From positions 638-64,637 of the forward strand of contig JAOACY010000032.1 of assembly GCA_026417615.1 (NCBI GenBank): 64,000 nucleotides of DNA, read 5' to 3'. Positions 27,622 to 60,145 of this stretch are shown here, piece by piece. The notes under the pieces were generated by a model. That model was not told the origin of the DNA and made no database searches. It saw only the letters and a list, made by a program, of their open reading frames with translations. A program made the position numbers and the translations under genes. Numbering within the stretch: position 1 is the first letter of the stretch; every line of letters begins with the position of its first letter. This stretch comes from Clostridia bacterium. GTDB taxonomy: Bacteria; Bacillota; Clostridia; Acetivibrionales; JAFADI01.

Positions 27622-27654
27622 TTTTACCTCCGTTAAAAGCTGCAATGAAAAATT

Positions 27655-29385: not shown

Positions 29386-29390
29386 CTCAC

Positions 29391-29440: not shown

Positions 29441-29468
29441 TTACCATAAAATATAGTAATGCAATATA

Positions 29469-31172: not shown

Positions 31173-31225
31173 TTTAACCTCTCCTCATTTTTTTATTTAG
31201 AACAGAGAATTTAGCTTCTCCGATT

Positions 31226-32104: not shown

Positions 32105-32114
32105 TTTTTCCTCC

Positions 32115-33032
32115 TTACCAGATCCCGTTGCCTGTTAGTTTTTTTGATGCATGATTTGATGCCAGAATCAGAATCATTCCAAATAATGACTGAAGCAATC
32201 CTACTGCTGCACCCAAACTGAATCTCATATTTCCTATGCCAACACGATATACCCATGTATCAATAATATCAGCAACATCCATAACGGCTTTATTGTAGAA
32301 CAAAAGCACCTGCTCTCCTCCAGCATAAAACATATGCCCTAAATTAATACAAAGAACAAACGTAACAACCGGTAGTATTGATGGTATAGTAATATGAGCA
32401 ATTCGTTTCAAGGGACCTGCGCCGTCCATTATTGCCGCTTCATATAGCTGTGTATCTACTGTAGATAGTGCAGCCATGTAAATTATAGTCCCCCACCCTA
32501 ATTCCTTCCACATAGACATTATAATAAGAATCGGTCTGAACCAATCCGTGCTCATCAAGAACTCCTGCCTTGGAAGGCCCATCATATCAAGCAAATTATT
32601 TACAAACCCGCTTCCTGTTGAAAAGAATGCAAAAGCAATACCGTAAATAATTACCCATGAAAAGAAATATGGAATATAGACCGCAGTCTGAGCATATTTT
32701 TTTAAGGTTTTCGATGTCATGTCATGGAACATTATCGCTAAAAATATAGGTGGCATAAAGCCTACAGCTAATCGGAGCAAGCTTATCTGGACAGTATTCT
32801 TGAAAGCTGTTGCAATTTCAGGGTCTGATACTATAAATTTGAAGTTATCAAAACCAACCCATGGACTCGTACTTACCCCGGAACCCATCTGAAGGTTTTT
32901 GAACGCCACAATCCAAGCCAGTACTATGGGCCAATACCTCAAAAATATATAGTAAAATATTAATGGCAACAATAGTAAATAAAGTGTTTTATGTTGCACA
33001 ATTCTTTTCCATAACAATTGATTTTTGTTCAT
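32115..33032 (-). CDS. carbohydrate ABC transporter permease (MalF/LplB-like)
   Basis: 305 aa, multi-TM, with an EAA loop (YEAAIMDGAGPLKRIAHITIP). Confidence 0.88.
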   Translation of the reverse strand: MNKNQLLWKRIVQHKTLYLLLLPLIFYYIFLRYWPIVLAWIVAFKNLQMGSGVSTSPWVGFDNFKFIVSDPEIATAFKNTVQISLLRLAVGFMPPIFLAIMFHDMTSKTLKKYAQTAVYIPYFFSWVIIYGIAFAFFSTGSGFVNNLLDMMGLPRQEFLMSTDWFRPILIIMSMWKELGWGTIIYMAALSTVDTQLYEAAIMDGAGPLKRIAHITIPSILPVVTFVLCINLGHMFYAGGEQVLLFYNKAVMDVADIIDTWVYRVGIGNMRFSLGAAVGLLQSLFGMILILASNHASKKLTGNGIW

Positions 33033-37720: not shown

Positions 37721-39202
37721 TCACATTGTCAGAATCCCATTGGGTGTGTCAATTATCATCAGTATGTTTTCTTCATTCCCGTTTTCCGCATTGATATACA
37801 CGATGAAATCTCTTTCTCCCAGCCGGCCTTTGAACTCGTAGGTAAAGATCTCCGATTTGTAATCTGTTGGTATCATTGCCAGTCCCGAACTCTTTACCTG
37901 CACCCTGGGATTGATTTTCGACCTGGCTTCCTGCTCTGTGATTTTAGGCTTCGGTATGTTCCTTACAGCATGGGCGGAAATGTATCCCTTGGCTTCAAAG
38001 CCTACAATTTCTCCATTATCCAGCGCAACCTTGAGCTTGATCAAGTCTGAATAAATTGTTACATTGTCTTGCTTATACGCGTAATTTATTATAGCTGTAT
38101 TGTCCTCTTTCAGGTAGTAGGTGTCCACCATATCGGGATAACCTCGCTCCCGAAGGAATTTCCTTCCTGCCTCCTTGGCCTGCTCAATGCTTATTGCTTC
38201 TTGCGCCACAGGCCTGTTGTAAAGCATCCAGAGTATATGACCTCCCTTCTGTGTAACTTCAATTGTTGCAATCTGATTCTCCGGCACATTTTTAAAGGCT
38301 ACCCTGTAGCTGTATGTTTTTATTGGCTCGGCGTCATTTCTTTCCTGATCTGTTATGCTCATTATCCTGTCCGCGCCCAGGAACTTCGCAGCATTCTGCT
38401 TCGCTTGCTCGGAGTTCAGCATGTCTCCTGTCAGCCCTCTAGGCTCTGCGGTTACCAAGTGGTCTGAAAACGGGCCGTCATATATTAGAGTAGGATAATC
38501 CTGAAAAGTTTTGTCTATATCCTTGAACTGCTTTTCCGGAAGTTCGGCTGAAAGCCTTTGAAACATTGGGGTTCCTTTTGATGATAAAGCACCCCATTTT
38601 ATCCTGCCTGAGGCAATCTGATTCTGCAAATCTTCAAGGCCTTCGCTTAGAGCTGTTGCAAAGCCCTGCAGCTGCTCAATGGTTTTGTATTGCTGTTCTG
38701 TCATTGCTTTCCCCTGCATGTTTTGGTTGTTAATGGAATACGCCAGATCTCCAACCTGAGTTAAAAATTTTGAGGTGTTGGCAATTATAGGCTGCGACAC
38801 AGGAAGCTGCCCAAGATTCTCCTGTGCAAGATTCGCCTGCCTCCACGCCTCCTGCAAGACTGATGCCGTCCTTGAAGGTGTTGATGTAAGAAGCGATTTT
38901 GCCAGCAATGTCTCAACGTTATTTACGTATCCCATCATATCATAGAATGACCTGTTGTACTGATTATCCAATTCCTGCCTTAGATTTGCCGCGTGCTTGT
39001 ACTGATACAACCCCCATATTGAAATAGCACCAATAACGGCAAGTACAATACTGTACATTTTTCTGTCAGATAACCTTCTTTTAAAATCCAGCAGCTTTTC
39101 TCTGATACTCAATTTCTTAATCCTCCCTTGCTTGGGGGCACGTCCGCTTATTAACAGGTTCCTGTCTTTTGGAGGAAATGCCCCCTCTTTATTATTTGCC
39201 AA
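37721..39202 (-). CDS. ypeB: germination protein YpeB (PepSY-domain protein)
   Basis: 493 aa with an N-terminal TM anchor and C-terminal PepSY repeats. It overlaps and follows sleB, the canonical arrangement. Confidence 0.85.
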   Translation of the reverse strand: MANNKEGAFPPKDRNLLISGRAPKQGRIKKLSIREKLLDFKRRLSDRKMYSIVLAVIGAISIWGLYQYKHAANLRQELDNQYNRSFYDMMGYVNNVETLLAKSLLTSTPSRTASVLQEAWRQANLAQENLGQLPVSQPIIANTSKFLTQVGDLAYSINNQNMQGKAMTEQQYKTIEQLQGFATALSEGLEDLQNQIASGRIKWGALSSKGTPMFQRLSAELPEKQFKDIDKTFQDYPTLIYDGPFSDHLVTAEPRGLTGDMLNSEQAKQNAAKFLGADRIMSITDQERNDAEPIKTYSYRVAFKNVPENQIATIEVTQKGGHILWMLYNRPVAQEAISIEQAKEAGRKFLRERGYPDMVDTYYLKEDNTAIINYAYKQDNVTIYSDLIKLKVALDNGEIVGFEAKGYISAHAVRNIPKPKITEQEARSKINPRVQVKSSGLAMIPTDYKSEIFTYEFKGRLGERDFIVYINAENGNEENILMIIDTPNGILTM

Positions 39203-39668
39203 AATTGTGTTTGCCTATTTTTTTTACAATTTTTCTGCTCCAAATCCATTTGCTTGTTGCTGTGGCAGGGTTCCAGTAATAAAGGCAGCCCCCTGTCGGA
39301 TCCCATCCGTTCAAAGCATCCCTGGCAGCCTTTACAACCGTTGATTTCGAATCAATCGGCACATTAATCTGACCGTCAGAAACCGCAGTAAATGCGCCAG
39401 GCTGATAAATTACTCCGGCAATTGTTTTTGGAAATTTTGGATCCCGTGTCCTGTTAAGTATAACCGCCCCTACAGCGACCTGACCTTCATAGGGCTCTCC
39501 CCTGGCTTCACCATTAATTGCTCTTGCCAGAAGCTGCTCGTTGCTTGGTTTTCCGCTTTTTGCCGCATATGCGCTGTCTCCTCCACTAAAAAAAGACCCT
39601 TGATTGAATACAGAGAAACCGATTGCAATCATAACGATCAGAAGGATCGCTCTTTTACCACATTTCAA
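39192..39668 (-). CDS. sleB: spore cortex-lytic enzyme SleB-type cell wall hydrolase (catalytic domain only)
   Basis: 158 aa with a signal/TM N-terminus and a Hydrolase_2 pattern (INGEARGEPYEGQVAVGAVILNR...YQPGAFTAV...GCLYYWNP). Confidence 0.85.
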   Translation of the reverse strand: MKCGKRAILLIVMIAIGFSVFNQGSFFSGGDSAYAAKSGKPSNEQLLARAINGEARGEPYEGQVAVGAVILNRTRDPKFPKTIAGVIYQPGAFTAVSDGQINVPIDSKSTVVKAARDALNGWDPTGGCLYYWNPATATSKWIWSRKIVKKIGKHNFGK

Positions 39669-46387: not shown

Positions 46388-47116
46388 CTAATTCGTAGCC
46401 TTATTCTCAGTTTTTTCTTTTACCTCAAAGCCCCCATCCCCTGAAAGCATAGCCTCCGCTCTTGCCCTTGCCCTGTCTCTCGCGGAGTTCATATCCAGCC
46501 TCTTAAGCTTCATTTCCATATTGTTGTCATTAAGGGACTCAATTGCATTAGCCCTTGCAGTCTTCTTGTTGACAATCTCTCTTGCCCTGTCCATGCTTTC
46601 ATTTACATTTCCAACCCTGCTGTTCTTTGATGTGTACTGGGCATTTACCGAGTTTATGTTTTCCCTGAGCTGAGCCATTTTTGCCTGTGACTTGAGGGTC
46701 TTGAGCTCATTGAGCTTCCCGTTCATTTCTGATTCGAATATCTTGTAGTCCTCTCTTATCTTTGCCACCTCAGCCATTGCATTGTCATAAGTAGCCTTGT
46801 GGGTTTCGTACACTGTCTGATATTCTTCTTCCTGCATAAGGAGCTCAACCAAAACATCCTTTTCCCCATGCTTTTGAGCAGCCTCTATTCTTGTCTTTAT
46901 TGCATTGAGATTCTTTTCGGCTGTCTTCATTTCGATCTTAATAAGCTCCGCATTCGTCTGAATCTCTATTATCTGCTGCTCCGCTTCTTTTCTCGCTTTA
47001 TCGATCTGCTGCCTGATATCTTCAAATAAAACTTCCGGATTCTTCTCCTCAAGGCCTCCGACAAAAAGTCCAAAAAATCCTCTTATCATGGCTCCAAGCC
47101 TGCTGAACAAACCCAT
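46388..47116 (-). CDS. pspA: PspA/IM30 family protein (bacterial ESCRT-III fold)
   Basis: 242 aa with an N-terminal amphipathic helix MGLFSRLGAMIRGFF, EKNPEVLFEDIRQQIDKA, and a long coiled coil typical of PspA/LiaH/Vipp1. Confidence 0.88.
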   Translation of the reverse strand: MGLFSRLGAMIRGFFGLFVGGLEEKNPEVLFEDIRQQIDKARKEAEQQIIEIQTNAELIKIEMKTAEKNLNAIKTRIEAAQKHGEKDVLVELLMQEEEYQTVYETHKATYDNAMAEVAKIREDYKIFESEMNGKLNELKTLKSQAKMAQLRENINSVNAQYTSKNSRVGNVNESMDRAREIVNKKTARANAIESLNDNNMEMKLKRLDMNSARDRARARAEAMLSGDGGFEVKEKTENKATN

Positions 47117-47213
47117 ATACTATTCCTCCCTTTTATAATTGTGGCTAGATTTCAAAAAGGCAAATTCACTGCGGGCAAGACCTGCCTATTGCACGGCAGG
47201 TATGTCCCTTTAC

Positions 47214-47243
47214 ATTATACCCGCAAATAATTATGCTTGTAAA
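47214..47243 (-). promoter_or_regulatory. promoter candidate for pspA (TTTACA-N18-TATAAT, overlapping GTTTAC-N16-GGGTAT)
   Basis: On the minus strand: TTTACA 47238-47243 and TATAAT 47214-47219. The same DNA also reads GTTTAC...GGGTAT. It sits directly after the AAA+ stop codon. Confidence 0.5.
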
Positions 47244-48884
47244 CTATGTGTTTTGATATATTTCCAGGAGTTTTTCCAGTTCGTCCCTGTTATCCATATA
47301 GCCCCTGTATCTTTCCGGGAGAAGATCATAATCATCACATTCCTTGATTGCCAGAGCCGTCATGAACTGGACCTGGCGAGTACTGGGCCTGCATCTGGAA
47401 ATAGCGTCCCTTAGTATATCACCGGTTATGGTATTGCCTTCACAGTTATCCTCATTGGCAAGTTCATACGCTTTTCTTACAACTGCTTCAAGCTCTGCTC
47501 CGGTGTAATTCTCAGCTGCTTCGGCAAAAGGCGCAAAGTCTTTTATGTCTGTCTCAAAGCCGTATTTCCTGATAATTACTTTGAAAATACCGGCCCTCTC
47601 GTCCTTATCTGGCAAAAGTATAGGTATTTTCTTATCAAACCGCCCCGCCCTTTTCAAAGCTGAGTCTAAAAGGTCAGGCCTGTTTGTGGCTGCTATAAAA
47701 ATAACCTTCCCCCTATTATTTGTATTACTTGTGAACTGTAAAAATTCACTGAAAATATTCCTGCTGACACCACTGTCTCCACTTTCTCCCCTTCTGAAGG
47801 CCGTGTCAATCTCATCCACAAATACAATCACCGGCTGCTGGGATCGAGCTCCTAAAAGGCATTTCTTAAAATTCTTCTCGCTTTCTCCCACATATTGCCC
47901 CAGTATCCTGGACATGTCTATTTTTACGCAGTTGAAGCCGCTTGCTTTCGCCAGGGCATTAACAAGCAGGGTTTTTCCTGTGCCAGAAGGCCCGCAAAGC
48001 AGAATGCCCATTGGCACTCGTCTCAGATCACCTTTTTTTATCGGTTCAACTATGTTTTTCAGCAGGTATTTTTTCGCCCTTTCCATACCGCCTATATCTT
48101 CAAAACCTATTTCCGGGTAAATGAATTCCAGAACATCTCCATATTCCTTAGCAAGGACGGAATGCTTCTTTTCCTTTATAAATTCAAAGCTGATGGGAAC
48201 ACCCTCTGCCTCAGCCTTCAGCTTAATATCCTTTATCGCCTTCTTGCTTAAGCCTGAAGACAGCTTCGCAAATTCGTCAGGGGTAATATCTGATCTTACG
48301 CTGTTGTCTTTCAGCAAATACTCAATATATTCCTTTCGAGCATTTTCGCCGGGCAGCTCGACAAGCACAGGCTCAACCCTGTATGCGGATTTAAGTATTT
48401 CCCTGCTTATATCGGCGATATTATCCGCCAGCATGAAAATAGCGCTGCCCACCGAGGAAATTTTCGGATTCACAGACCACTCGCTTGTCCAGATAAGAGC
48501 CATTCTCTCTTCCAAAGACATGCTCCCCACATCCACCGAGGGGAGAATCTTTTCAAAATGGTCAATAAACAATGCCATCTTAGTGCTTTTTAGAGCTATG
48601 TCTATATAAGGAAATATTTTTGACGGAAGTGCTCGAAGGAGGCTTGCAGCCTCGTTGGAGGTTATCTTGTTGAACTCCTTTTCCATGCCTGCATCCATGA
48701 AGGTAAGTCCTCTGGAAATGTCATAATAAGCCACAATGGCAAATTGCCGCTGCTTTATGAATTCCTCAAAAAGGAACCTGTCAATGAATCTGTTATTGTC
48801 CACAAGATCCCTTACATTAAAATAAAGTAAAAATTCATGTGAAATACCTGATTTGTATTTGCTTAAGAACTCTTCATACCACAT
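47244..48884 (-). CDS. two-lobed AAA+ ATPase (P-loop-less N-terminal lobe, classic-clade AAA C-terminal lobe)
   Basis: 546 aa with Walker A GPSGTGKT, Walker B VIVFVDEID and SRH ATNRPDLLDSALKRAGRFD. The first ~270 aa have no P-loop. Confidence 0.85.
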   Translation of the reverse strand: MWYEEFLSKYKSGISHEFLLYFNVRDLVDNNRFIDRFLFEEFIKQRQFAIVAYYDISRGLTFMDAGMEKEFNKITSNEAASLLRALPSKIFPYIDIALKSTKMALFIDHFEKILPSVDVGSMSLEERMALIWTSEWSVNPKISSVGSAIFMLADNIADISREILKSAYRVEPVLVELPGENARKEYIEYLLKDNSVRSDITPDEFAKLSSGLSKKAIKDIKLKAEAEGVPISFEFIKEKKHSVLAKEYGDVLEFIYPEIGFEDIGGMERAKKYLLKNIVEPIKKGDLRRVPMGILLCGPSGTGKTLLVNALAKASGFNCVKIDMSRILGQYVGESEKNFKKCLLGARSQQPVIVFVDEIDTAFRRGESGDSGVSRNIFSEFLQFTSNTNNRGKVIFIAATNRPDLLDSALKRAGRFDKKIPILLPDKDERAGIFKVIIRKYGFETDIKDFAPFAEAAENYTGAELEAVVRKAYELANEDNCEGNTITGDILRDAISRCRPSTRQVQFMTALAIKECDDYDLLPERYRGYMDNRDELEKLLEIYQNT

Positions 48885-49002: not shown

Positions 49003-49464
49003 TTATACTTCAAGCCCTATATTAATCTGGATTCTTCCGAAAGGCGTCTCCATGTCAACGGCTACCGTCTGAACCGAGCTGATAATGAGCATAATGTCCC
49101 TTCCAATTATTATTGACGGCGGAGTAAGATCGGTTGCGACACCGGCTTGCGACAGAATTGCCGAGGCCCTCCCCCCCATCATATTGGCCATCTCCCCCAG
49201 AGCGCTTCTGGCTATTGAATCCAGGGTTTCAACAGGCATTCCCATCATCATGGCTGAAGCAATTTTTTTGCCCGTTTCCTCTGTCATGCAATAGGCTATA
49301 TTACCTCTTACATCGCCCACTATGCCTATTATCGATGTAATGTCCATATCCGCCAGCATGGTTTCCTTCTTCTGAAGCCCGCCTTTTTTTATATCTGATG
49401 CGCCAAAAGTCTCCAAAACATTTTTAAGTGCCTCAAGAAACGGATTTATATATTTTATGTCCAT
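49003..49464 (-). CDS. cheX: CheX-type CheY-P phosphatase
   Basis: 153 aa with one complete [D/S]-x3-E-x2-N-x22-P motif (SALGEMAN...TPP). Confidence 0.82.
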   Translation of the reverse strand: MDIKYINPFLEALKNVLETFGASDIKKGGLQKKETMLADMDITSIIGIVGDVRGNIAYCMTEETGKKIASAMMMGMPVETLDSIARSALGEMANMMGGRASAILSQAGVATDLTPPSIIIGRDIMLIISSVQTVAVDMETPFGRIQINIGLEV

Positions 49465-49467
49465 AAC

Positions 49468-49941
49468 TCAAAGCCCCCTTTCAAAAGCTGCATTCAGCCT
49501 GAGCTTTCCGTATTCCGAAGTACAGTACATAGAGTACGAATTCAGCTTTGGAATGCATATGGCGGCGCCCTTCCCGGCAAAAACCACAGGAGGGGCTAGT
49601 CTTAAGCTTAAAGAATGCATGTTGTTTAAAGCAGTTATTGCGTCACCTGCAACAATATTGTTCAGTTCAGATATTGCCGCCAGAACCATATATTCCTTTT
49701 CCGAGCTGAATTCCTGCCCCACGATGTTTTTTGCTATTTCCAGAGCCAGGCTCTGCTCAATGTCGAGAAGCAGCCTGCCCTTAATCTTTCCTGAAAAGGA
49801 AATTATGGAGGATACTCCGTAGGATTCTATATCCTCAGTTTCTGGATGAAATACTTCAGTAGTCCTCAATTCTATCCCCGACATTTGCCTGAGAACACCC
49901 GCAATGCTTTTTTTAAATGGATCATAAAGCTGTGCTTGCAT
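49468..49941 (-). CDS. CheX/CheC-family protein (motif lacks the leading D/S)
   Basis: 157 aa. ISELNN...LAP keeps E-x2-N-x22-P, but the residue at -4 from Glu is Ala. Confidence 0.72.
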   Translation of the reverse strand: MQAQLYDPFKKSIAGVLRQMSGIELRTTEVFHPETEDIESYGVSSIISFSGKIKGRLLLDIEQSLALEIAKNIVGQEFSSEKEYMVLAAISELNNIVAGDAITALNNMHSLSLRLAPPVVFAGKGAAICIPKLNSYSMYCTSEYGKLRLNAAFERGL

Positions 49942-49953
49942 AATCTCCCCCCA

Positions 49954-50313
49954 CTAAACCAGTTTTGCTATTGCGCTGATAATCTTATAGTCATCAAAGG
50001 GTTTTTTGAGGAATATATCAATTCCCAAATCCTTTGCTTGAGACATGATTTCCTCGTCTCCCATGGCACTTAGCATAATAATTCTGGCTTGTGGCCTTAA
50101 GGTCTTTATGCTCTTGGCTGCTTCCAAGCCATCCATTATCGGCATGGTAATATCCATGAAAACAAGGTCGGGATTTAGCTGTCCAAAAAGCTCCACACCC
50201 TCCCTGCCGTTTTTTGCATCTCCGCAAACCTCATATCCGTTATTCTCCAGCGTCTTTCTCAGCAGGTTGTGAATAATCGGCGAATCATCTACAATAAGAA
50301 TTCTCTTAATCAT
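49954..50313 (-). CDS. cheY: single-domain response regulator CheY
   Basis: 119-aa REC with ILIVDDS, phospho-acceptor context LVFMDITMP and a conserved Lys (FLKKP). Confidence 0.9.
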   Translation of the reverse strand: MIKRILIVDDSPIIHNLLRKTLENNGYEVCGDAKNGREGVELFGQLNPDLVFMDITMPIMDGLEAAKSIKTLRPQARIIMLSAMGDEEIMSQAKDLGIDIFLKKPFDDYKIISAIAKLV

Positions 50314-50414
50314 AATTATCTATCCTTTCTATTTATATGGTAATTTTTGCGGCAAAACCTTCTCTTTATTTCCTTGTTTGAAAAGCAACTTCCCCTGTGT
50401 TCGGCTTGAAAATC

Positions 50415-50912
50415 TTACATGCAGGCAAGCTCCAAGGTTAGTATGCCCTCTCCAATACGGAATGATTTTTCAAGCTTTTGAATCCTGTTCTTATACAGTA
50501 TGACATAGTTGTCACCCGTTACTATAAAGGGCGAAGTAAGCTGAAAATATTCGTCGGAATCTGCCAGCGCAGCTTTAGCTCTTCCGCAGACCATATTTAC
50601 CAATTCTGCGGTTCCGTCATACAAGTCTTCTTCGTTTGCCTCACTGACAATTATTCCGGTCATATATGACACAATCAACGCAGCGGTGTCTGAATCCATT
50701 CTTATTGAAGCCATTGAGCTCCTCTTGCCCGCCAGCGTCATTGCACCTGTTATATACTTTCCGCCACGGTCGCTGAAATTATTTTCCCCTTGTATTTCCA
50801 CCGGTTCAAGACCAGCCATTGTGCTTAACACATCATAAACAGCCGTTGAAAAAGCTCTTCCAATAAATTCATTTCTATCTAAAAAAGCTCTTTCTTCCAT
50901 TGAATCATTCAC
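50415..50912 (-). CDS. cheX: CheX-type CheY-P phosphatase
   Basis: 165 aa with one complete motif DGTAELVN-x22-P. It overlaps the upstream cheY by 8 nt. Confidence 0.8.
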   Translation of the reverse strand: MNDSMEERAFLDRNEFIGRAFSTAVYDVLSTMAGLEPVEIQGENNFSDRGGKYITGAMTLAGKRSSMASIRMDSDTAALIVSYMTGIIVSEANEEDLYDGTAELVNMVCGRAKAALADSDEYFQLTSPFIVTGDNYVILYKNRIQKLEKSFRIGEGILTLELACM

Positions 50913-51279
50913 CCCTTCCCAGACATTGAAGGATTCGTTTGATCAGCTCTTCAATAGTAAAAGGTTTTGTCATGTAGTGTATCGCTCCGGCCTTGATAGC
51001 CTTGATTATATTCTCCTTCTCGCTTTCTGTGGTAACCATCATAACGGGTATTCCTGCATAATCCCGATGTGCCTTTATTGCTTTTAAAAATTCAAGCCCG
51101 TCCATTCCCGGCATGTTCCAATCGAGCAGCACCAATCCAACATTTTTCCACTCTTTTTCGAGAACATCAAGGGCTTCCTGCCCGTCACCGGCTTCAAGAA
51201 GCCCGAACTCCAAAACCTCGGCGGCACCCCTGACGATTTTTCTGATTACAGCGGAATCATCCACTGATAATATTTTCAT
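50905..51279 (-). CDS. cheY: single-domain response regulator CheY
   Basis: 124-aa REC with ILSVDDS, LVLLDWNMPGMDG and YMTKPF. Confidence 0.9.
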   Translation of the reverse strand: MKILSVDDSAVIRKIVRGAAEVLEFGLLEAGDGQEALDVLEKEWKNVGLVLLDWNMPGMDGLEFLKAIKAHRDYAGIPVMMVTTESEKENIIKAIKAGAIHYMTKPFTIEELIKRILQCLGRGE

Positions 51280-51286
51280 TTATCCC

Positions 51287-52147
51287 TCACCCCTTAACCC
51301 TGTAGTAAACACCATTATTGTATTGCTCCAAGATAAAGTAATCCCTGTAGTCGGGAAACAACTCAGAGCTTCCGATAATTAATTTCCCGTCCGGATTCAG
51401 CGCACCCGCTATTTTCACCATTACCTCCCTTTTGAGCTGCTCCGAGAAGTAAATTATTACATTCCTGCATAAAATCAAATCAAATTTACCCATCAGCACA
51501 AAACTGTTCTGAAGGTTGAATTGCTGAAAATGCACTGAGCTTTTAATTCTTTCATCCAGACACCATACCCGGCCTTCATTTTTAAAATACCTGTCCCGGT
51601 AGCCATTTTCCATTCCCCTCATTATTGAAATGCTGTCATATCTTCCCATTCTGGCTACCTGAAGAACAGTTTTGGATATGTCAGTCGCAAGTATTCTGAA
51701 ATTTGAAAGGTTAATATCGGCAATACCCTTCCTTGCAAGGTGATTATCTATGCACATTGCTATCGAGTATGGCTCCTGACCTGTTGAGCATGCCGCGCTC
51801 CAAATCCTTATAGAGGTTTTCAAGCCCTCTCTAAGCTCTTTAATATATTGCGGCATAAGTACATTGTCAATTATCTCAAAGGGTGTTTTATCCCTGAACC
51901 AGAGGGTTTCATTGGTAGTCAAGGCATCAATCACCTGTTCCGTGATGCCTTGATCGCCCCCGACGGCTATCTTTTGGTAGAGCTCCTCAAAGCTGCTTAA
52001 GTTTGAGTCCACCAGCAGCTTTGAAAGCCTGCTTTCAATCAGGTATGCTTTTTCTTCGCCTATGGCAATGCCGCACTTTTCCTGTATAAATTTCTGAATC
52101 AGTTTAAATTCTTTTGACGTCAAGCTTGGAGCCATATATTCCTCCAC
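51287..52147 (-). CDS. cheR: chemotaxis protein methyltransferase CheR
   Basis: 286 aa with a CheR N-domain, TNETLWFRD, and a SAM-binding region IWSAACSTGQEPYS. Confidence 0.93.
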   Translation of the reverse strand: MEEYMAPSLTSKEFKLIQKFIQEKCGIAIGEEKAYLIESRLSKLLVDSNLSSFEELYQKIAVGGDQGITEQVIDALTTNETLWFRDKTPFEIIDNVLMPQYIKELREGLKTSIRIWSAACSTGQEPYSIAMCIDNHLARKGIADINLSNFRILATDISKTVLQVARMGRYDSISIMRGMENGYRDRYFKNEGRVWCLDERIKSSVHFQQFNLQNSFVLMGKFDLILCRNVIIYFSEQLKREVMVKIAGALNPDGKLIIGSSELFPDYRDYFILEQYNNGVYYRVKG

Positions 52148-53242
52148 TTACACAAGCTGCAGTATTCTAGCGCCCATATCCTTCAAATCCACCGCTTCAT
52201 CTGACAGCCCAGCCTCCGCAACACACCTGGGCATACCATAGACAACACAGGATGCCTCCGTCTGTGTCAGGCAAATGCAATTGCATCTGCGCTTTAGCTC
52301 TGCAACACCCTGTGCGCCATCATTACCCATGCCTGTTAAAATAACCGCCAGTATATTTTTGCCCTCGTAGGCTTTTGCAACTGATGTAAACAGCACATCA
52401 GCCGCAGGCCTTACCCCGTTGACGAATGGCTGACTGTTAAGAGCTATTACTTTTTCATTTCCCCTGCTTACCACTTCCATGTGAAAACCACCTGGTGCAA
52501 TAATAATTTGATTATTGCTGACAAAATCCTCATTTTTGCCTTCAACTGCTTTTATCTGATATTTCCTGTCCAGGGTCTCAGCCAGAATCCTTGTAAATTC
52601 AGGCGGCATATGCTGCACAACCAGAACCGGTTTTTTAAAGCTTGCCGGAAATGCTCCGAAAACAGTCTCCAAGGCCGCCGGCCCTCCCGTAGAGGATGCG
52701 ACGAGTACCAGGTCAGCCCCCGCCCATTTATTTATGATTGGCTTAACAGGAGAGCTTGTAATTGCATGTAATTTAACATCCTTTGAGCTCTGCAGCATAC
52801 TATCAGCATAAGCTTGGACAGGAGATGCGCTGAACCTTTTAATCTTAATCTGGGCGAAAAGGACTTGGAGCTGATTTCTTATTCTGTCCATATTTTTATC
52901 GTATGACGCTTCCGAAGGTTTTAAAATAAAGTCCATCGCCCCCAGCTTCAAAGCTTCAAGCGTTACAGCCGCATTATCCGAACCGCCGCTGCTTATCATT
53001 ATTACAACAATATCAGGATATTCTCTTTTTATAACCTTTAATGCTTCGATTCCATCCACCTCAGGCATGAAGACATCCAAAAGAACAACATCCACCCCGC
53101 CCTGCTTCAGCCATTCAAGAGCTATCGCTCCATTTGAAGCACTCCTTGCGACAACCCCAAGGCCCGTGCCCTCCACAGCCTCTGCCAGGATTTTTCTGTA
53201 AACTATGGTATCATCCGCTATTAGCACCTTAAGCTTGTCCAA
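52148..53242 (-). CDS. cheB: protein-glutamate methylesterase CheB (REC + esterase)
   Basis: 364 aa with an N-terminal REC (VLIADD...VVLLDVFMPEVDG) and an esterase domain (ASSTGGP, QHMP, GMGNDG). Confidence 0.93.
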   Translation of the reverse strand: MDKLKVLIADDTIVYRKILAEAVEGTGLGVVARSASNGAIALEWLKQGGVDVVLLDVFMPEVDGIEALKVIKREYPDIVVIMISSGGSDNAAVTLEALKLGAMDFILKPSEASYDKNMDRIRNQLQVLFAQIKIKRFSASPVQAYADSMLQSSKDVKLHAITSSPVKPIINKWAGADLVLVASSTGGPAALETVFGAFPASFKKPVLVVQHMPPEFTRILAETLDRKYQIKAVEGKNEDFVSNNQIIIAPGGFHMEVVSRGNEKVIALNSQPFVNGVRPAADVLFTSVAKAYEGKNILAVILTGMGNDGAQGVAELKRRCNCICLTQTEASCVVYGMPRCVAEAGLSDEAVDLKDMGARILQLV

Positions 53243-53372
53243 AGAGTCTCTACCTCCGCTAACATAATAAATTGAGCTTTTTCCTGCGCACGATTATTCT
53301 GCAAAAACAGCTTTTCTTTAAAACAAATTGCAAACCACTCACAGTTCCCGAAAATGCGTTTTTGCCGTGGAA

Positions 53373-55727
53373 TCATATTTTAAATTGCCTTACCAACTCT
53401 TCAAGCTTGCGGGCAATATCCGAAAGACCCTTGGCCGAGTTGCTGGTTTCTACGGCACCCGCTGCGGTATCGCCTGCCGCGCTGCTTATCTCCTGGATGT
53501 TTTGAGCTATCTCATTTGCTCCCTTTGAAACCTCGACAGAAGTCATGGCAACCTCACGCACCCTTGCAGTTGCAGTTTCGGTGCTCTTTGCCACTTCATT
53601 GGAGGCAGACGACAGCTCGGTGGCTGACCGCGCTATTTCCCTCACGCCTTTTGCAGACTCCGCTATGCTCTTCGAGACATCTTTTGCATTCGCGGCCACT
53701 TCTCCGATTTCCCTGGAAATTAAGTTTACTTTTTCGGCAGCCCTTACAATTGCATTGGATATATCCCCAGTTGTGGCAGACTGTTCGGTAACAGCCGCAG
53801 CTATTGTGTTGGTTATTGATGTCATCTCCTTTATAACCTCCGTTATAGTCTCAACTGCCTTTACCGCCCCCGACATATTCCCCTGCATAGCCTCTATCTG
53901 CTGTCCTATTTCCTCTGTTGCTTCGGCGGTCTGCTTAGCCAGCTCTTTTACTTCATTTGCCACCACGGCAAAGCCCTTGCCGGCTTCTCCGGCTCCCGCA
54001 GCTTCTATGGCTGCATTTAAAGCAAGCATATTTGTCTGGTCTGCTATATCATTAATTACATTTATTATCTTTCCAATCTGCCTTGAGGATTGGTTGAGCC
54101 TTTCTATTATAGTGTTTGTATCCTTTGCCTTTGCATCTGCATCCGAAGTAATATGAATCGACCGTTCACAGTTTTTGTTGATTTCATTAAGCGAGATGTT
54201 GATTTCCTTGACAGCTGTTGCAACACTATTTACAGAGCTTGAAACCTCCCTGGCCGAATCCGACACATTGGATATGCTTCCGGTAATCTGGCTTACCAGC
54301 TCCGTAGCCTGTGTTACGCCGGCAGACGTCTGTTCCGAGGCAGAAGCCAGATTTCTTATCGTCCCCGACATCTCCTCAACAGCTGAAGCAATAATGCTCA
54401 TGCTGCTGCTTGTGTCGTTCATGGCCGCGGCTGTCTGGTTCATGCTTGCGGATATCTCCTCAACGGCCGCGCTGACCACCGTGGTCTTTGCGCTGGTTTC
54501 CTCGCTGGTTGCAGCCATGGATTCCGCTACATTCAACAAGCCTTCCGACGATTTGTTCACAAGCATTGTTGAATCGTAGATATTTTTAATCATTGCACCG
54601 ATTTTTTCGAACAATGAGTTGAAGGAAGCCGTCAATTCACCGATCTCATCGTGCGACAGCACTTCGCCCCTGATGCTCAAATCCCCCTTCTCCGCCTGAG
54701 ACATCAGAACCTTGAGCCTTACTATTGGATCAGATATTTTTTTGGAAAAAATCAATCCGAACAGGACAATTAGAACTATTGCCACAACACATACTATAAG
54801 CATTATTATTCCTATCATATTGCTCGAGCGGAATGCTTCACTCGAGTCAATTTCAGTTATCAAGCCTGCATAAAGGTCTCCCAGCTTTAAAACGCTGTAT
54901 TTCCCAATTACCTTTTCCCCTCTGTAATCCAAAAACTCCCCGGCAAATTCATATTCGGCATTTTTTTGAGTTATTGGCTCAGAAAGCCTTTTTACCGCAC
55001 TTCCAGAAACTTTGCTCTTAAAAGGTTCAAAATTGCCGAATTTCGGTTTGCTCATGCATATCCCATCGGACCCAACCAGGTATGCATCCGCCGACTCTCC
55101 TACCGCATCCATTCCTTCGACCACCTTGCTGGTTACGTCCTCAGTCTTCAAGACTATAGAAAATACGCCTATAACTTCACCACTCTCCCCGTTTGCATAT
55201 ACCGGGGCTGCGAAGGCGGTAATATAGTCTTTAACAAATTCTGAATAGAAAAATGGGGAATTGTTCACCTGCCCCTGTTTTGCCAGCTTGAAATAATCCC
55301 TGCCGCTGAGATCCTTTCCTATAAGCCCCTTGTCATTTGAAAATATCACCTTGCCGTCAATATCCAGCATATTGACCAGTTCGCTGCGGTAACCCTTTTT
55401 AACCGAATTGATGAAGGTTTCAAGCGCGGGCTCCCTTTGTTTCCACTCAGGCGCGTTCATATCCTTGTTTACTGACATGTAAATATTCATCGCCTGGTAA
55501 ACATCCCTGGTGGATGCAAGCACCTTACAGTCCGTTGCATTCCTTTCAAAAATATTCATAATATAACCTTTTTTCTGTTCTTCAAAAACGTCCAGCTTCT
55601 TTACAGTTTCGGATTTCAACGCATTGGCCGCCATTATGTAAGAAAAACCGCTAATGGCTATAAATGGAACAAGACTTGATATGAGCAGTACTGAAATTAT
55701 TTTTTTGTTTAGCTTCATATTTTTCAT
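53373..55727 (-). CDS. methyl-accepting chemotaxis protein (TM - double-Cache-like sensor - TM - HAMP - very long signalling domain)
   Basis: 784 aa with the hairpin-tip consensus [32 protein letters not shown], a HAMP after TM2, and a ~280-aa periplasmic domain between the two TMs. Confidence 0.92.
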
Positions 55728-55748
55728 TATTTTCCTACCTCCCCATAA

Positions 55749-56180
55749 TTATTGTTCAAAAACTTTTAAAGGATCTATTATTATCAAAAGCTCATCTTCA
55801 AGCTTTACAACACACTCAATGAATTCCCCCTCCATTCCTCCCACATTTGCTGGGGGCGGCTCACACTGCTCATCCTCTATGTCAACAACATCCCCCGGTG
55901 CGTCTATGGGAAAGCCAACCTGGTCTGATGCATCCCCCTGAAGGTTCTTCAGGAAAATGCAGGCTGACTTCTGCTCCCATTTTTTGCCGTCCTTTCCTAT
56001 CATTTTCATCAGATTCAATAATGTTACAACCTGCCCCCTCATGTTAAAAAGACCTACGATATACTCCGGCGCGTCGGGTACAGGTGTAAATTCCACGCTG
56101 CGGCTTATTTCCTTCACCAGCGTTATGTCAATGCCCAAAAGCCCTCCTTCCAGCCGGAAGGTTAGCACCTTTCCCGTCAT
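55749..56180 (-). CDS. cheW: coupling protein CheW
   Basis: 143 aa, a single CheW-like domain. It overlaps the cheA stop by 4 nt. Confidence 0.9.
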   Translation of the reverse strand: MTGKVLTFRLEGGLLGIDITLVKEISRSVEFTPVPDAPEYIVGLFNMRGQVVTLLNLMKMIGKDGKKWEQKSACIFLKNLQGDASDQVGFPIDAPGDVVDIEDEQCEPPPANVGGMEGEFIECVVKLEDELLIIIDPLKVFEQ

Positions 56181-59100
56181 ACGGCACGCCTCCTTTCCTG
56201 CAGCGCTTGTTCTATTCTGTCAAGGAGTACAGCCCTGTCAAGCTTGAATTCGTAAAAGTCAAAGCCGGCCTCAAAGCCTGCCTTCTTTTGCTGTTCTCCC
56301 GTAAGCGAGGTGACCGCGATAACAGGCAGATTACGCAAACGGTCATCCTCACGTATTTTTCTGACCAGCTCCAGTCCGTCCAAAACAGGCATATTAATGT
56401 CACTTACCACTACGTCCACCTTGTTTTCCTGAAGGAATTGCAGAGCTTCCCTGCCGTTTTGCGCCAGCAGCACCTTGTAGCCTGCTCCTTCAAGATAGCT
56501 TCTCTCCATGCGCTGGAAGAACGGTGTGTCCTCAGCCACAAGCACAACCTTTTCCTCTCTTGCCTTTCTTCCTAAGGCAGCGGCATAATGGTGAGGGTCA
56601 GCCAGCTCAAACAATTCATACATGTTTATGAGCAGCACCATGGTCTTGTTTATTATGGCTGAACCCATAAGCCCTTTTGCGGATAAAACTTCCTCGTTGA
56701 GCCTTATGCTCGTCAATACCGTATCATCAATCTTCTCAATGAGAATGCCAATAGGGTGCTTCACCAGCTTTGGAACAATAACATACAGCCTGTCCTGCAT
56801 TGACTCATGCTTTGCAACAGGGAGGTAGTCCTCAGGCCTGATTACCCTTAATGAGCTTCCTCGGAATTTTATAAACTCTTTGTCGCCCACTTTATCAATA
56901 TCTGCACGTTTTATTTCCTCCACCCTGGATACCATCGAAAGATCAATGGCAAAGGTTTCAGGACCAGAGCATTTGAAAAGCAAAAGATTTTGCTGCTCTC
57001 TTAATCTTTCTTCATTTTCTTTTGATTCAATGGTAATTTTATCCTCCCCATCTTCTACAAATCTCAGGTTCGCCTTGGAAATAATGCCGTCGGGATCAAG
57101 AATCATCGCAGTTTTACCGTCCCCCATTATAGTTACCCCTGAATAGCATTTACTGTTCTTAATATATTTGGACAGAGGCTTTACAAGTATCTCCTCACTT
57201 CCGTGAATGGCATCCACCGCCACTCCGAACCTCCTTGAGCCGATTTTCAACACAAGTATCCTTATTATATTATTCAGGTCACTCCTGCGAGATTCAATAG
57301 CATATGAGTCATTTGAAATATCTGTCTCTGCGTTGGCAAAATGCATCCTTCTCCTGTCATACAAGGTCTTTCTCCTGTCTTCTTTTGTTTCCCCTGTCAA
57401 GGGATCCTTGTAGGTTCTGACAAGTCCCAGCACATCTGCAAGGTGAACTATGGGCAGCAGCCTTCCTCTAAGCCTTAACACCTCAGAATTATGTACATAT
57501 TCAATTTTTCTTGCAGCCTCTCCGGGCCGTATCCGGACAATCTCCTGGAGATTTGCCTGCGGAAGCGCAAACTTCTGCTTCTCAACCTCAACAATAAGAG
57601 ACGGAATGATGGCAAGAGTCAAGGGAAGCAAAAGCCTGAAGGTTGTTCCGGCGCCTGCGCTGGTGAATATTTCAATAGTCCCTCCCAGCTTTTCGATATT
57701 GGTTTTCACGACGTCCATGCCAACTCCTCTTCCCGAAACATCCGTAATCCTTTCAGCCGTAGAAAAGCCAGGCTTGAATAGAAGCTGCAAAACCTCCTGG
57801 TCGCTCATTGAAGCCACATCGGATTTTGATGCCAGTTCTTTCTCCAGTGCCTTTTTCTTTATTTTCTCCAGGTTTATGCCCGCTCCATCATCCACTATGT
57901 CAATATTTACATAACCTCCCTCATGGTATGCCTTTAAAACGATCCTCCCGACCCTCGGCTTGCCCTTTTGCTCTCTGATTTCCGGAAGCTCCAGGCCGTG
58001 GTCCGCAGCATTTCTTACAAGGTGTGTCAATGGATCCCCCAGTGCCTCGATAATGGATTTATCCAATTCCACCTCTGTTCCTTCAAGCTGAAGCTCAATT
58101 TCCTTGCCAAGCTTCCTTGACAAATCCCGAATTATCCTCGGAAATTTATTGAATACATTTGATATCGGCTGCATTCTCGTCTGCATTACCTTTTCCTGAA
58201 GCTCTGTTGTTATCCTGTCTATGTTCTGAAGTATGGGCTCAATTCCGGAAATATCCTTCCTGTAGCGTTCCATTGCCCGAAGCAGCTGATTTCTTCCTAA
58301 AACCATTTCACTTGCCAGATTCAAAAGATTATTCAGCAAAGAAACATGGACTCTTACACTGTCTTCAAAAACCACGGGCTGGTTTTTCTTATCAATTGCT
58401 TCTTTTTCCTGTTCTTCTTTTTTGTATTGGTTGTGCAGGCCAGACTTGTGCTGAACGAACGGCTGCGTTTTCCCGGCGTTATTTAACAAGTCCTCTGTTT
58501 TTGTATTTGAGTCAAGCTCCTCAATGCGGCTCTCGGGAATATCAAGGGCCATTGGCAGCAGCCCCTTCTCCAGCACCGTGGTAAACAGGAAAGTGAAGGT
58601 TATTTCTGAGTTGAGACATTTGTCGAGATCTTCGATGCTGCTTAAATCTGTTTTTGAATCCACAATATTTCCAATAGACTGAATTTTGTTGAAAAATTTT
58701 ATGGGAGTTATATTTTTTTTGCCAAGGTCTTCATTGAGCAGGAGCCTTACCCTGTAAAGCTTGTGACCGTGCCTTCTTCCCTCCTCTATAATTATCCTTT
58801 CAGAAGTGCTGTCATTGTCGCTGAGCTTGTCTGTTTGCTTTTCAGCGATAAGTCTTCCTCTTTCAAAAGCAGCCGCAAGCTTAATGGTATATTTGGATAT
58901 GTCACACTCCTCGCTCCTGCCGACTTCCAGTATCATTCCTTTAAGGCAATCGTTAGAAGCCAGAAGCAAGTCAATCAGCTCGCGGTCTATTTTCGTTCTG
59001 TTGTTTCTAAGCTCCCCAAGCACATTTTCCATCGAATGTGAAAGCTCTACAATTTTTTTAAGGCCAAAAAAGCCTGCTGTTCCTTTTATACTATGTATGG

Positions 59101-59233
59101 CGCGGAATATTGTATTTATCTGCTCTAAATCCTCTGATGCGTCATCCAGCTTTAAAAGTCCCGATTCTGCTTTTTCAACATTCGTCATGGCTTCTTCTAC
59201 GAATTCGTGAATGAATTCCTCGTTCTGCAGCAA
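56177..59233 (-). CDS. cheA: hybrid chemosensory histidine kinase CheA (Hpt - dimerisation - HATPase - two CheW-like domains - REC)
   Basis: 1018 aa with an Hpt His in RAIHSIKGTAG, HATPase boxes (HLVRNAADHG, DDGAGI, GRGVGMD) and two CheW-like segments. The C-terminal REC has VLVAEDT and VVVSDINMPVLDG. Confidence 0.92.
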   Translation of the reverse strand: MLQNEEFIHEFVEEAMTNVEKAESGLLKLDDASEDLEQINTIFRAIHSIKGTAGFFGLKKIVELSHSMENVLGELRNNRTKIDRELIDLLLASNDCLKGMILEVGRSEECDISKYTIKLAAAFERGRLIAEKQTDKLSDNDSTSERIIIEEGRRHGHKLYRVRLLLNEDLGKKNITPIKFFNKIQSIGNIVDSKTDLSSIEDLDKCLNSEITFTFLFTTVLEKGLLPMALDIPESRIEELDSNTKTEDLLNNAGKTQPFVQHKSGLHNQYKKEEQEKEAIDKKNQPVVFEDSVRVHVSLLNNLLNLASEMVLGRNQLLRAMERYRKDISGIEPILQNIDRITTELQEKVMQTRMQPISNVFNKFPRIIRDLSRKLGKEIELQLEGTEVELDKSIIEALGDPLTHLVRNAADHGLELPEIREQKGKPRVGRIVLKAYHEGGYVNIDIVDDGAGINLEKIKKKALEKELASKSDVASMSDQEVLQLLFKPGFSTAERITDVSGRGVGMDVVKTNIEKLGGTIEIFTSAGAGTTFRLLLPLTLAIIPSLIVEVEKQKFALPQANLQEIVRIRPGEAARKIEYVHNSEVLRLRGRLLPIVHLADVLGLVRTYKDPLTGETKEDRRKTLYDRRRMHFANAETDISNDSYAIESRRSDLNNIIRILVLKIGSRRFGVAVDAIHGSEEILVKPLSKYIKNSKCYSGVTIMGDGKTAMILDPDGIISKANLRFVEDGEDKITIESKENEERLREQQNLLLFKCSGPETFAIDLSMVSRVEEIKRADIDKVGDKEFIKFRGSSLRVIRPEDYLPVAKHESMQDRLYVIVPKLVKHPIGILIEKIDDTVLTSIRLNEEVLSAKGLMGSAIINKTMVLLINMYELFELADPHHYAAALGRKAREEKVVLVAEDTPFFQRMERSYLEGAGYKVLLAQNGREALQFLQENKVDVVVSDINMPVLDGLELVRKIREDDRLRNLPVIAVTSLTGEQQKKAGFEAGFDFYEFKLDRAVLLDRIEQALQERRRAV

Positions 59234-59251
59234 TACATTTCACCTCTTTTT

Positions 59252-59557
59252 TCAAGCTTCTATGCTCATTACCTCATCCAGCTTCATAATCTTGAACAGG
59301 TTGGAAATTTCATTGTTTATTCTTATTATCTTGAACTTCTTCCCCAAATTAAAAACGCTTTTATACAACCCTACTATAAATGTAACACCCACCGAATCTA
59401 TGCTTTTTACGTTTTCAAGATCCAAAACCACCTGCTCGTAAGCTACTTGCGAATCAATGAAACCCTTCGCGCTGTAAATTAATTCCTTCACTCTGCTAGA
59501 TACAATATCAGATGTAGGTGTTAATCTGATTACATTTTCTTCAATTGACCCCTTCAT
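59252..59557 (-). CDS. STAS-domain anti-sigma-factor antagonist-like protein
   Basis: About 101 aa with the Ser motif VKSIDSVGVTFIVG. The likely start is MKGSIEEN at 59557. It ends 18 nt before cheA. Confidence 0.8.
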   Translation of the reverse strand: MKGSIEENVIRLTPTSDIVSSRVKELIYSAKGFIDSQVAYEQVVLDLENVKSIDSVGVTFIVGLYKSVFNLGKKFKIIRINNEISNLFKIMKLDEVMSIEA

Positions 59558-59981
59558 AAAAATCCCTCCCGTAACCAAGTTTTGAAATATCTGCTTTCAC
59601 TGTAACCTCGCTGCAGTTTACCTTAATGTCAAACCCTAACTTCATTATTAAATACAATCCTCTGTGGCGCAATCCGTCAAGCTCTTTAGAACACTGAGCC
59701 TCTTCAGGTTCTCTTATGCAAAACCCCTCCCCTTCATCAGCAATCCTTGCCTCTATGCTGCCGCAATCAAAAGAAATGAAGCATTTTACTTTTTTTTTGC
59801 GTTCCATTCTGTTTCCGTGTTCAACGGCATTATTCAATAATTCTCTTAAAGCAAAACAAATTATAAAAAGCCTGTTTTTATCAGTAATGCAGCACTCTGT
59901 GGTGAAAAATTCAGAAATAAGGGCCATTGCAAGATCCACATGCTGGAAAGTGGATTCTGTAGCTATTCTGAAAACAGGCAT
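59541..59981 (-). CDS. RsbW/SpoIIAB-family serine kinase-like protein (GHKL), first gene of the chemosensory operon
   Basis: 146 aa with N-box NNAVEHGN, G1 ADEGEGF and a G2-like RHRGLYLIM. It is paralogous to the 15-455 product. Confidence 0.75.
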   Translation of the reverse strand: MPVFRIATESTFQHVDLAMALISEFFTTECCITDKNRLFIICFALRELLNNAVEHGNRMERKKKVKCFISFDCGSIEARIADEGEGFCIREPEEAQCSKELDGLRHRGLYLIMKLGFDIKVNCSEVTVKADISKLGYGRDFYEGVN

Positions 59982-60145
59982 ATAAGCTCCTTTTTAGAGA
60001 AACAGCCAATTATTTGTTTACATAAAGTTTAAGTCGGGCTGTTAGTCTCTCGACAATATTCTTCAAGTTCCGACATCAATTATTATATTTATACCAAGAA
60101 TATTTTGAATCAAACAGAAAAGTTTTGACCCCCTATGTTTAATTA

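Follow-up and report, generated by a model that had tools for sequence, protein, structure and literature searches.

What does a pair of partner-switching genes do at the head of a chemotaxis operon? We addressed this question for a locus in a 64,000-nucleotide stretch of Clostridia bacterium DNA (GenBank assembly GCA_026417615.1, contig JAOACY010000032.1; the whole stretch is hereafter called the window), in which the genes of a small GHKL-type kinase (K) and a STAS-domain protein (S) directly precede cheA. The initial annotation of this locus had proposed that the pathway reads from, or writes to, a partner-switching cascade rather than the motor. Our comparison with related loci points to a chemosensory system conserved in Clostridia and Heliobacteria, in which a three-part serine-phosphorylation switch, consisting of K, S, and a response-regulator phosphatase (REC-PP2C), is built into the che operon, a reading that we consider probable on balance.

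The operon comprises 12 open reading frames (ORFs) on the minus strand, from 59981 to 49003, and Pfam searches identified them, in order, as K, S, CheA, CheW, a methyl-accepting chemotaxis protein (MCP), CheB, CheR, CheY1, CheX1, CheY2, CheX2, and CheX3. The junctions range from -17 to +130 nt: K/S, -17 (S starting at ATG 59557); S/cheA, +18; cheA/cheW, -4; cheW/mcp, +21; mcp/cheB, +130; cheB/cheR, 0; cheR/cheY1, +7; cheY1/cheX1, -8; cheX1/cheY2, +101; cheY2/cheX2, +12; and cheX2/cheX3, +3. The initial annotation had described twelve same-strand genes with short or overlapping junctions, a kinase gene overlapping the STAS gene, and an 18-nt gap before cheA. All of these ORFs were present with no gap wider than 130 nt, the overlap and the gap measured as described, and this anatomy of the operon is correct in essentially every detail. 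The core of the Che pathway (CheA, CheW, MCP, and CheY) and the adaptation enzymes CheB and CheR lie in this one cluster with Pfam scores above cut-off. As had also been claimed, the operon has no cheC-, cheD-, or cheV-type genes and no flagellar genes, and motA (8832-9626) and motB (8044-8808), placed some 40 kb away by the initial annotation, lie approximately 39 kb from the operon end. The leader is a 347-nt gap downstream of an amine-oxidase gene, and it contains no SigD-like site, in agreement with the earlier observation. A candidate sigma-70-type promoter (TTCAAA-16-TATAAT; 60082..60109, minus strand) was found by consensus scan approximately 100 nt upstream of K, with 10/12 matches to the consensus and on that match only. 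No terminator-like sites were found on the minus strand inside the operon, and Rfam revealed no riboswitch or other family in or near the leader.

K (59541..59981, minus strand) is a 146-aa GHKL protein of the SpoIIAB/RsbW fold (Pfam HATPase_c_2, 48 bits) and is the probable serine kinase of S. Its N-box (RELLNNAVEHGN; E47/N51/H55-G56-N57) and its G1 box (DEGxGF; D82-G84-G86) are invariant across the family, and its G2 box is reduced to RxRG (R105-x-R107-G108). The AlphaFold2 (AF2) model of K (predicted local distance difference test [pLDDT] 85.5; predicted template modeling score [pTM] 0.80) was searched with Foldseek, and the best PDB matches were SpoIIAB (1th8, 1tid, and 1l0o) and RsbW (6m36), at E 6e-9 and template modeling (TM) scores of 0.65-0.71. 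With an N-box, a G1 box, a G2 box, and a predicted SpoIIAB fold, K appears to be the HATPase_c_2 GHKL component of a partner-switching module. However, K is approximately 18% identical to SpoIIAB/RsbW, from which its reduced G2 box also sets it apart; it scored 19.8 bits on the NCBIfam RsbW model NF003144 (cut-off 145) and did not match the SpoIIAB model. Judged by these profiles, K is a divergent relative and not an RsbW or SpoIIAB equivalog or ortholog.

S (59252..59557, minus strand) is a 101-aa single-domain STAS protein (Pfam STAS, 36 bits), and its start at ATG 59557 was placed by homolog alignment. The serine that the initial annotation had pointed out in the motif IDSVG (D54-S55) is present in the window protein, and D54, S55, and G57 are invariant in the 15/15 homologs aligned. 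The closest solved relatives of S are TM1442 and SpoIIAA, with 1auz and 1th8_B as the best sequence matches, and its serine aligns with those of SpoIIAA and TM1442. S55 presumably occupies the position of SpoIIAA Ser58, according to our reading of the SpoIIAA sequence and the TM1442 alignment. A single STAS domain with a DS-x-G acceptor serine is what would be expected of a STAS antagonist. The top sequence match, "SenB"/LvrC (9qih), left no trace that we could find in the open-access literature.

A single-sequence search with K returned three relatives only; K evolves fast, and its relatives were therefore sampled through CheA. CheA homologs number more than 5,600 at E<=1e-30, and the best 120 share one architecture. 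A CheA scan of one genome per GTDB species yielded 19 informative loci, which were annotated by profile searches, and look-ups of CheA homologs added three, giving 22 loci chosen by CheA similarity alone. The tally of kinase and STAS genes before cheA that the initial annotation had proposed revealed K directly upstream of cheA in 15 of the 22 loci, with S intact in 13 of these 15. The carriers include Anoxynatronum buryatiense, A. sibiricum, Tindallia, Heliobacillus mobilis, Pseudobacteroides cellulosolvens, and several metagenome-assembled genomes (MAGs) of Clostridia/Bacillota, and the nearest relatives (CheA 69-71% identical) have the same flanking genes. Fusions of K and S into one polypeptide occur in P. 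cellulosolvens and in no fewer than five further clusters (fusion proteins P0140, P0174, P0175, P0187, P0195, and P0203). A neighbor-joining tree of CheA placed K-S in the basal and most other branches and showed it to be absent from one clade, comprising Syntrophomonas-type loci, L007/L009, L013, and L020, in which, on this phylogeny, the pair has been lost. Adjacency to cheA, the fusions, the kept residues, and the equal divergence described below support the claimed functional tie between the kinase/STAS pair and the Che system.

The remaining component of the switch was found in the operons of relatives. A REC-SpoIIE (PP2C) regulator of 380-406 aa is encoded directly after cheX3 in L005 (20165-21310), L008, L010, L014, L017, L022, and L030 (17730-18875), and in L033 a REC-PP2C gene stands immediately before the K-S fusion, which in turn precedes cheA; the phosphatase is operon-encoded in at least 8 relatives. 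Among the cultured carriers, Tindallia magadiensis and Anoxynatronum possess all three components. The earlier claim that a remote partner is required is supported and can be sharpened: the missing partner is a REC-PP2C, encoded in the relatives' operons and not in the window. In the window, L003, and L012, genes for an AAA-ATPase and PspA directly follow cheX3, and since L005, in the same CheA clade, still keeps the phosphatase, the REC-PP2C gene must have left the operon recently.

We also searched for K beyond the che loci. A K-profile search of 5.8 billion proteins returned at least 1,400 clusters at E<=1e-5. When representatives at 50% identity were searched exhaustively, approximately 80 clusters were obtained at E<=1e-30, and a metagenome scan with the same profile yielded 80 loci. 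Among loci scoring above approximately 95 bits, K precedes S wherever S was detected; approximately 29 are K-S-REC-PP2C triads, a further 5 break off after REC, and approximately 7 continue into cheA. Lower-scoring loci (approximately 70 bits) have the classical S-then-K order and are canonical RsbV-RsbW-like. Stand-alone K-S-REC-PP2C triads without che genes were also found in Fusibacter (L031) and in L032. By profile score and gene order, K-S is a distinct family with a response-regulator phosphatase as its regular third partner, and the che-embedded form is, on the same evidence, one deployment of the triad. Outside che operons, K occurs nearly always in such triads, and the triad family amounts to approximately 80-100 clusters at 50% identity. 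On many Clostridia-like contigs, the stand-alone triads (L031, L037-L100) occupy a fixed chromosomal slot between an AMIN/Amidase_3 gene and rph-rdgB (Ham1)-Metallophos_2. These neighbors, the amidase upstream and rph-rdgB downstream, were considered as a clue to the output and were judged to be housekeeping synteny. In a subgroup (L060, L061, L063, and L074), an MCP gene adjoins the stand-alone triad.

Gene content, fusion, co-inheritance, and conserved residues together suggest a mechanism, which follows the logic of the RsbK-RsbY-RsbV-RsbW and SypE/SypA systems (PMC4574943, PMC10120452). K would phosphorylate S on Ser55 using ATP, and REC-PP2C would strip the phosphate from this serine. The receiver of REC-PP2C would be a phosphotransfer target of the hybrid CheA, and receptor occupancy and methylation state would thereby set the S/S~P ratio, which would decide whether K, or S itself, is free for a downstream target. 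This serine branch would run parallel to a fast CheY-P branch formed by CheY1/CheX1 and CheY2/CheX2/CheX3. In the window lineage, the phosphatase gene is gone from the operon, and the phosphatase would have to be encoded elsewhere in the genome.

Several observations weigh against this mechanism. No PP2C domain, and hence no cognate phosphatase, was found by tblastn in the 64-kb window, and PP2C is absent from the che-linked operons of the window, L003, L012, L028, and L029. The link between CheA and REC-PP2C is one of gene adjacency. The reduced G2 box (RxRG) means that kinase activity of K is not assured by its sequence. The AF2 model of the K-S fusion P0140 (domains at pLDDT 87.8; pTM 0.60) gave no docking geometry. 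Neither the che-linked nor the stand-alone loci have a conserved target gene, for a sigma factor or anything else, beside K-S. Finally, the module is evolutionarily labile. Between K and cheA in L012, S is a decayed, unannotated remnant (9778-10001; 24 bits on the S profile), and CheY1-CheX1 are missing from this locus as well, whose CheA is shorter, at 915 aa; in L019, truncation has left the first 49 positions of S (2732-2923). MAG assembly errors may underlie either case. In Heliomicrobium modesticaldum Ice1 (CP000930.2, L114 10001-10504), K is an orphan (HM1_1673) between prfC/VTT and cstA. The slot of this orphan is filled by the entire K-S-che operon in Heliobacillus mobilis (L028), which indicates that in H. 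modesticaldum the operon was deleted and the kinase gene was left behind.

This lability raises the question of whether K-S in the window genome is itself a decaying relic, a pair that lost its phosphatase and is still co-transcribed but no longer signals. The absence of REC-PP2C from the operons of the window, L003, and L012, despite its presence in L005 of the same clade, would agree with such decay, as would the pseudogene remnant of S in L012, its truncation in L019, and the retention of K alone in H. modesticaldum. However, the window K and S ORFs are undisrupted, with none of the family-invariant residues lost, and Heliobacillus and Pseudobacteroides also retain K-S without an operon PP2C. 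Moreover, K and S have diverged relative to CheA to the same extent as in PP2C-containing lineages: whether or not the operon encodes a PP2C, pairs with approximately 70% identity in CheA share 36-37% identity in K and 50-52% in S, from which we argue that K-S of the window is still constrained. We therefore regard decay as very improbable.

To determine what kind of output the operon serves, we examined its Che proteins. The initial annotation had described a 1018-aa CheA with Hpt, dimerization, HATPase, two CheW-like, and C-terminal REC domains, and all of these were found with Pfam in the hybrid CheA (56177..59233, minus strand; Hpt, H-kinase_dim, HATPase_c, two CheW-like domains, and REC). 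The Hpt histidine is H47 (HSIKG), and residues 92-290 form a region without domain assignment. The two CheW domains escaped both a local profile and a BLAST comparison of CheA with itself, but separate Pfam scans of the two halves placed each above its cut-off, at 87 and 43 bits. CheW (55749..56180, minus strand) scored 81 bits with Pfam CheW. The receptor (53373..55727, minus strand) is a 784-aa transmembrane protein with Pfam HAMP and MCPsignal domains, in which two transmembrane helices flank an approximately 270-aa periplasmic, Cache-type sensor region. The size of this region and a precomputed dCache_1 match of the L001 ortholog favor the double-Cache receptor of the initial annotation, but the sensor of the window protein itself gave a sub-threshold sCache_3_2 match only. 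The signaling hairpin is unusually long, with approximately 29 heptads per arm (approximately 58H length), its tip EAAGAGE lies at residue 575, and four methylation-site-like motifs are present. CheB (52148..53242, minus strand; REC plus methylesterase) and CheR methyltransferase (51287..52147, minus strand) were both identified with Pfam. CheY1 (50905..51279, minus strand; Pfam) is a single-domain response regulator with the canonical DD...D...T...K residues, and CheY2 (49954..50313, minus strand; Pfam) is a second such regulator, co-inherited with K-S; the receivers of CheA, CheY1, and CheY2 all show the acidic pocket, T/S, and K residues typical of such domains.

Three members of the CheX family of CheY-P phosphatases complete the operon, all of them at 52-62 bits with Pfam and with an intact ExxN active-site motif. 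CheX1 (50415..50912, minus strand) is divergent (Pfam CheX, 52 bits; ExxN at 103-106), CheX2 (49468..49941, minus strand) has Pfam CheX and CheC matches and ExxN at residue 92, and CheX3 (49003..49464, minus strand; Pfam CheX; ExxN at 91) is the nearest of the three to Thermotoga CheX, with 113 bits on the NCBIfam model CheX_Thtogales. CheX is known from Thermotoga and spirochetes, and two CheY with three CheX fit a fast CheY-P output, such as motor control; this combination is untypical of chemosensory systems of the gene-expression type. The earlier claim of an output "rather than the motor" is not supported, for two CheY and three CheX with intact ExxN point to a fast CheY-P branch as well. 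A dual output, through a serine branch and a fast CheY-P branch, is more likely than a non-motor output alone. The hybrid CheA-REC and the lack of neighboring flagellar genes are compatible with the alternative cellular function (ACF) class of Wuichet & Zhulin; nevertheless, the ACF assignment that the initial annotation implied is not supported, in that the operon keeps two stand-alone CheY and three ExxN-bearing CheX.

The distribution of the second of these CheY-CheX groups suggests a different role for the pair. CheY2 is present in 13/13 K-positive loci with a readable 3' part versus 0/7 K-negative loci, and the clade without K-S also lacks CheY2-CheX2-CheX3, so K-S co-occurs perfectly with this sub-module. 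K-S could accordingly act as an input to, or feedback on, the Che machinery: unphosphorylated S would bind CheA or the CheY2/CheX2/CheX3 branch and change the flow of phosphate, and K, with REC-PP2C where present, would toggle this binding, which would create a serine layer of gain or adaptation control. In keeping with such a role, K-S always lies immediately 5' of cheA with tight junctions and the place of the PP2C gene varies (3' end, 5' end, or absent), the constraint on K-S is unchanged in operons without PP2C, the surroundings hold no conserved target gene for a sigma factor or anything else, and CheS, a STAS protein, has been reported to bind CheA and alter the handling of CheY (PMC12654446). 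The likeness to CheS is one of description, however, and the K family is far commoner in stand-alone triads with no che gene within 10 kb. Because most of the family occurs in these che-less triads, the basic function of K would be independent of CheA. We judge this role of K-S, by analogy with CheS, to be a credible but improbable alternative. We find it unlikely, too, that K-S, with or without REC-PP2C, is no route to a sigma factor but a serine-phosphorylation control layer of the array, in which CheA~P would drive REC-PP2C and S/S~P would feed back on CheA or CheY2-CheX2-CheX3. If true, this would constitute a second, slower memory or gain mechanism beside receptor methylation, kept across Clostridia and Heliobacteria.

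A three-part switch that feeds a downstream target might instead be read as a classical anti-sigma switch, in which K sequesters a remote sigma factor, unphosphorylated S frees it, and the Che pathway controls its regulon. The initial annotation had noted that the operon encodes neither a sigma factor nor a PP2C; this holds for the operon, but a sigma factor with a STAS/RsbW-like pair at 539-2008 in the same window was missed. This second partner-switching locus, on the minus strand, encodes a STAS protein with a canonical DSTGLG motif (1691-2008), an RsbW-like protein without a DxGxG G1 box (1306-1719), and a SigB/F/G-family sigma factor (539-1303; 248 bits, TIGR02980 cut-off 234), beside an extra HATPase_c_2 protein of 146 aa (15-455) that is 26% identical to K and matches the K profile at 4e-19. 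Judged by its missing G1 box, the anti-sigma protein of the 15-2008 locus may be a pseudokinase that depends on another protein for kinase activity, so that an outside kinase might be needed. The SpoIIAB/RsbW fold of K, the presence of a K paralog beside this sigma factor, and the control of RpoS by CrsR/CrsA of the Shewanella che1 locus (PMC9855816) also speak for an anti-sigma role. Nevertheless, among more than 60 K-family loci examined, the only ones with a sigma gene next to K-S are two low-scoring loci in which it lies on the opposite strand, and the K-then-S order reverses that of rsbV-rsbW and spoIIAA-spoIIAB. In addition, the RsbW model gave K a score of only 20 bits, BLAST showed no similarity between S and the STAS protein linked to the sigma factor, and a separation of 57 kb within one window is no evidence of a link. 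The sigma module at 539-2008 is a candidate partner of K-S and no more, and we regard the anti-sigma switch as unlikely.

The three-part switch resembles several described systems without matching any of them. In Bacillus cereus, the methylation-regulated hybrid histidine kinase RsbK, controlled via RsbM, phosphorylates the REC-PP2C protein RsbY, which dephosphorylates a STAS protein opposed by the kinase RsbW (PMC4574943). Like the Clostridial system, this Firmicute RsbK-RsbM-RsbY-RsbV-RsbW-SigB system has a hybrid kinase, a methyltransferase, a REC-PP2C, a STAS protein, and a serine kinase; unlike the window operon, it has a single hybrid-kinase sensor with no MCP-CheW-CheA array, a V-W-sigma gene order with sigB adjacent, and no CheY, CheX, or CheB. 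In Vibrio fischeri, SypE, a REC-PP2C protein fed by a histidine kinase, drives a partner switch with SypA, which is active when unphosphorylated and whose output is not a sigma factor (PMC10120452). Here, too, an RsbW-like kinase, a REC, and a PP2C act on one STAS protein, but SypE carries the three domains in one polypeptide encoded in a polysaccharide locus, whereas the kinase and the REC-PP2C of our system are separate genes of a che operon. K-S also shares its N-box, G1 box, and acceptor serine with SpoIIAB/SpoIIAA and RsbW/RsbV but differs in its reversed gene order and in having no sigma gene adjacent.

Che clusters with STAS genes have been described in Proteobacteria. F7 stage 1/2 clusters of gamma-proteobacteria, such as V. 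cholerae cluster III, include STAS and serine phosphatase genes, which flank the set cheY-cheA-cheW(x2)-aer2-cheR-cheD-cheB-mcpA (PMC7184735), and for the CrsR/CrsA partner switch controlling RpoS at the che1 locus of S. oneidensis it was stated that Che1 "could be involved" (PMC9855816). The logic of these systems, from a receptor array through CheA and a REC-containing phosphatase to a STAS switch, is similar to the one proposed here. However, the window operon belongs to another phylum and another Che class: its hybrid CheA carries both a REC and two CheW domains, CheD is absent, three CheX are present, and its receptor is a transmembrane Cache-type protein of approximately 58H rather than a soluble Aer2-like one. 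It falls outside the definition of F7 stage 1/2, and the system is an analogue of the F7 clusters and not a member. Whereas CrsR combines the kinase with REC-PP2C in a fusion, the kinase of the window operon is a small protein of its own, encoded by the first gene, and no sigma target is known here. CheS of Sinorhizobium/Agrobacterium is a single-domain STAS protein that is encoded in a che operon and binds CheA (PMC12654446); unlike K-S, it belongs to alpha-proteobacterial flagellar systems, and no partner serine kinase or PP2C has been described for it. STAS genes have also been noted in Campylobacterota che classes (PMC9239204). The initial annotation knew of no characterized Che pathway with this wiring in Clostridia, and in the open-access text available to us we found no description of the K-S-che arrangement in Clostridia or other Firmicutes. 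The claim of novelty is nevertheless overstated, because che clusters with STAS and phosphatase genes, as well as CheS, have been published (PMC7184735, PMC9855816, PMC12654446).

Further features were noted around the operons. In the Tindallia/Clostridiaceae loci L014 (8134-9189), L022 (8150-9205), and L030 (8177-9232), the gene directly upstream of K, in the same orientation, encodes a REC-HD-GYP (HD_5) regulator, and this hints at a cyclic di-GMP connection in the Tindallia-type lineage. In L017, a triple-REC GGDEF protein is encoded upstream in the opposite orientation, and a SipL/LysM gene lies close to the operon in the relative L001. In the window, genes for an AAA+ ATPase (546 aa) and PspA/IM30 (46388-48884, minus strand) follow cheX3 with no terminator detected between, and the pair is kept downstream of the che operon in L003, L012, and L013, that is, whether or not K-S is present; in Tindallia (L030), PspC and LiaI/LiaF-like genes take its place. 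An envelope-stress output through the AAA-ATPase and PspA, suggested by their position 3' of cheX3 in the window, L003, and L012, was considered and rejected: because the same pair also follows the K-less operon of L013, it represents lineage synteny and offers no functional clue.

Elsewhere in the window, Rfam revealed a group II intron catalytic-domain match (24991-25067, minus strand; 42.4 bits against a gathering score of 40), and the region around it (24378-26062) lacks ORFs of >=110 aa. A sugar-type signaling and transport cluster (26062-33032, minus strand) comprises an AraC-type regulator (REC plus HTH_18), a His_kinase/HAMP sensor, two BPD_transp_1 permeases, and a 567-aa protein without a Pfam match. 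YpeB and a SleB-type cell-wall hydrolase of spore germination are encoded at 37721-39668 (minus strand), which indicates a spore-forming Firmicute.

Signaling from a chemoreceptor array to a partner switch is still largely inferred from gene neighborhood, even in the best-studied case, Shewanella Che1. The Clostridial family offers a compact and separable version of this wiring, with a kinase, a STAS protein, a REC-PP2C, a hybrid CheA, and natural K-S fusions. It also provides a natural "deletion series", consisting of operons with and without PP2C, a decayed S, and an orphan K, and its cultured carriers (Heliobacillus mobilis, Tindallia, Anoxynatronum, and Pseudobacteroides cellulosolvens) make the step from CheA to REC-PP2C and the output directly testable. 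Beyond the che operons, this analysis defines a widespread and apparently uncharacterized family of K-S-REC-PP2C triads in Firmicutes.

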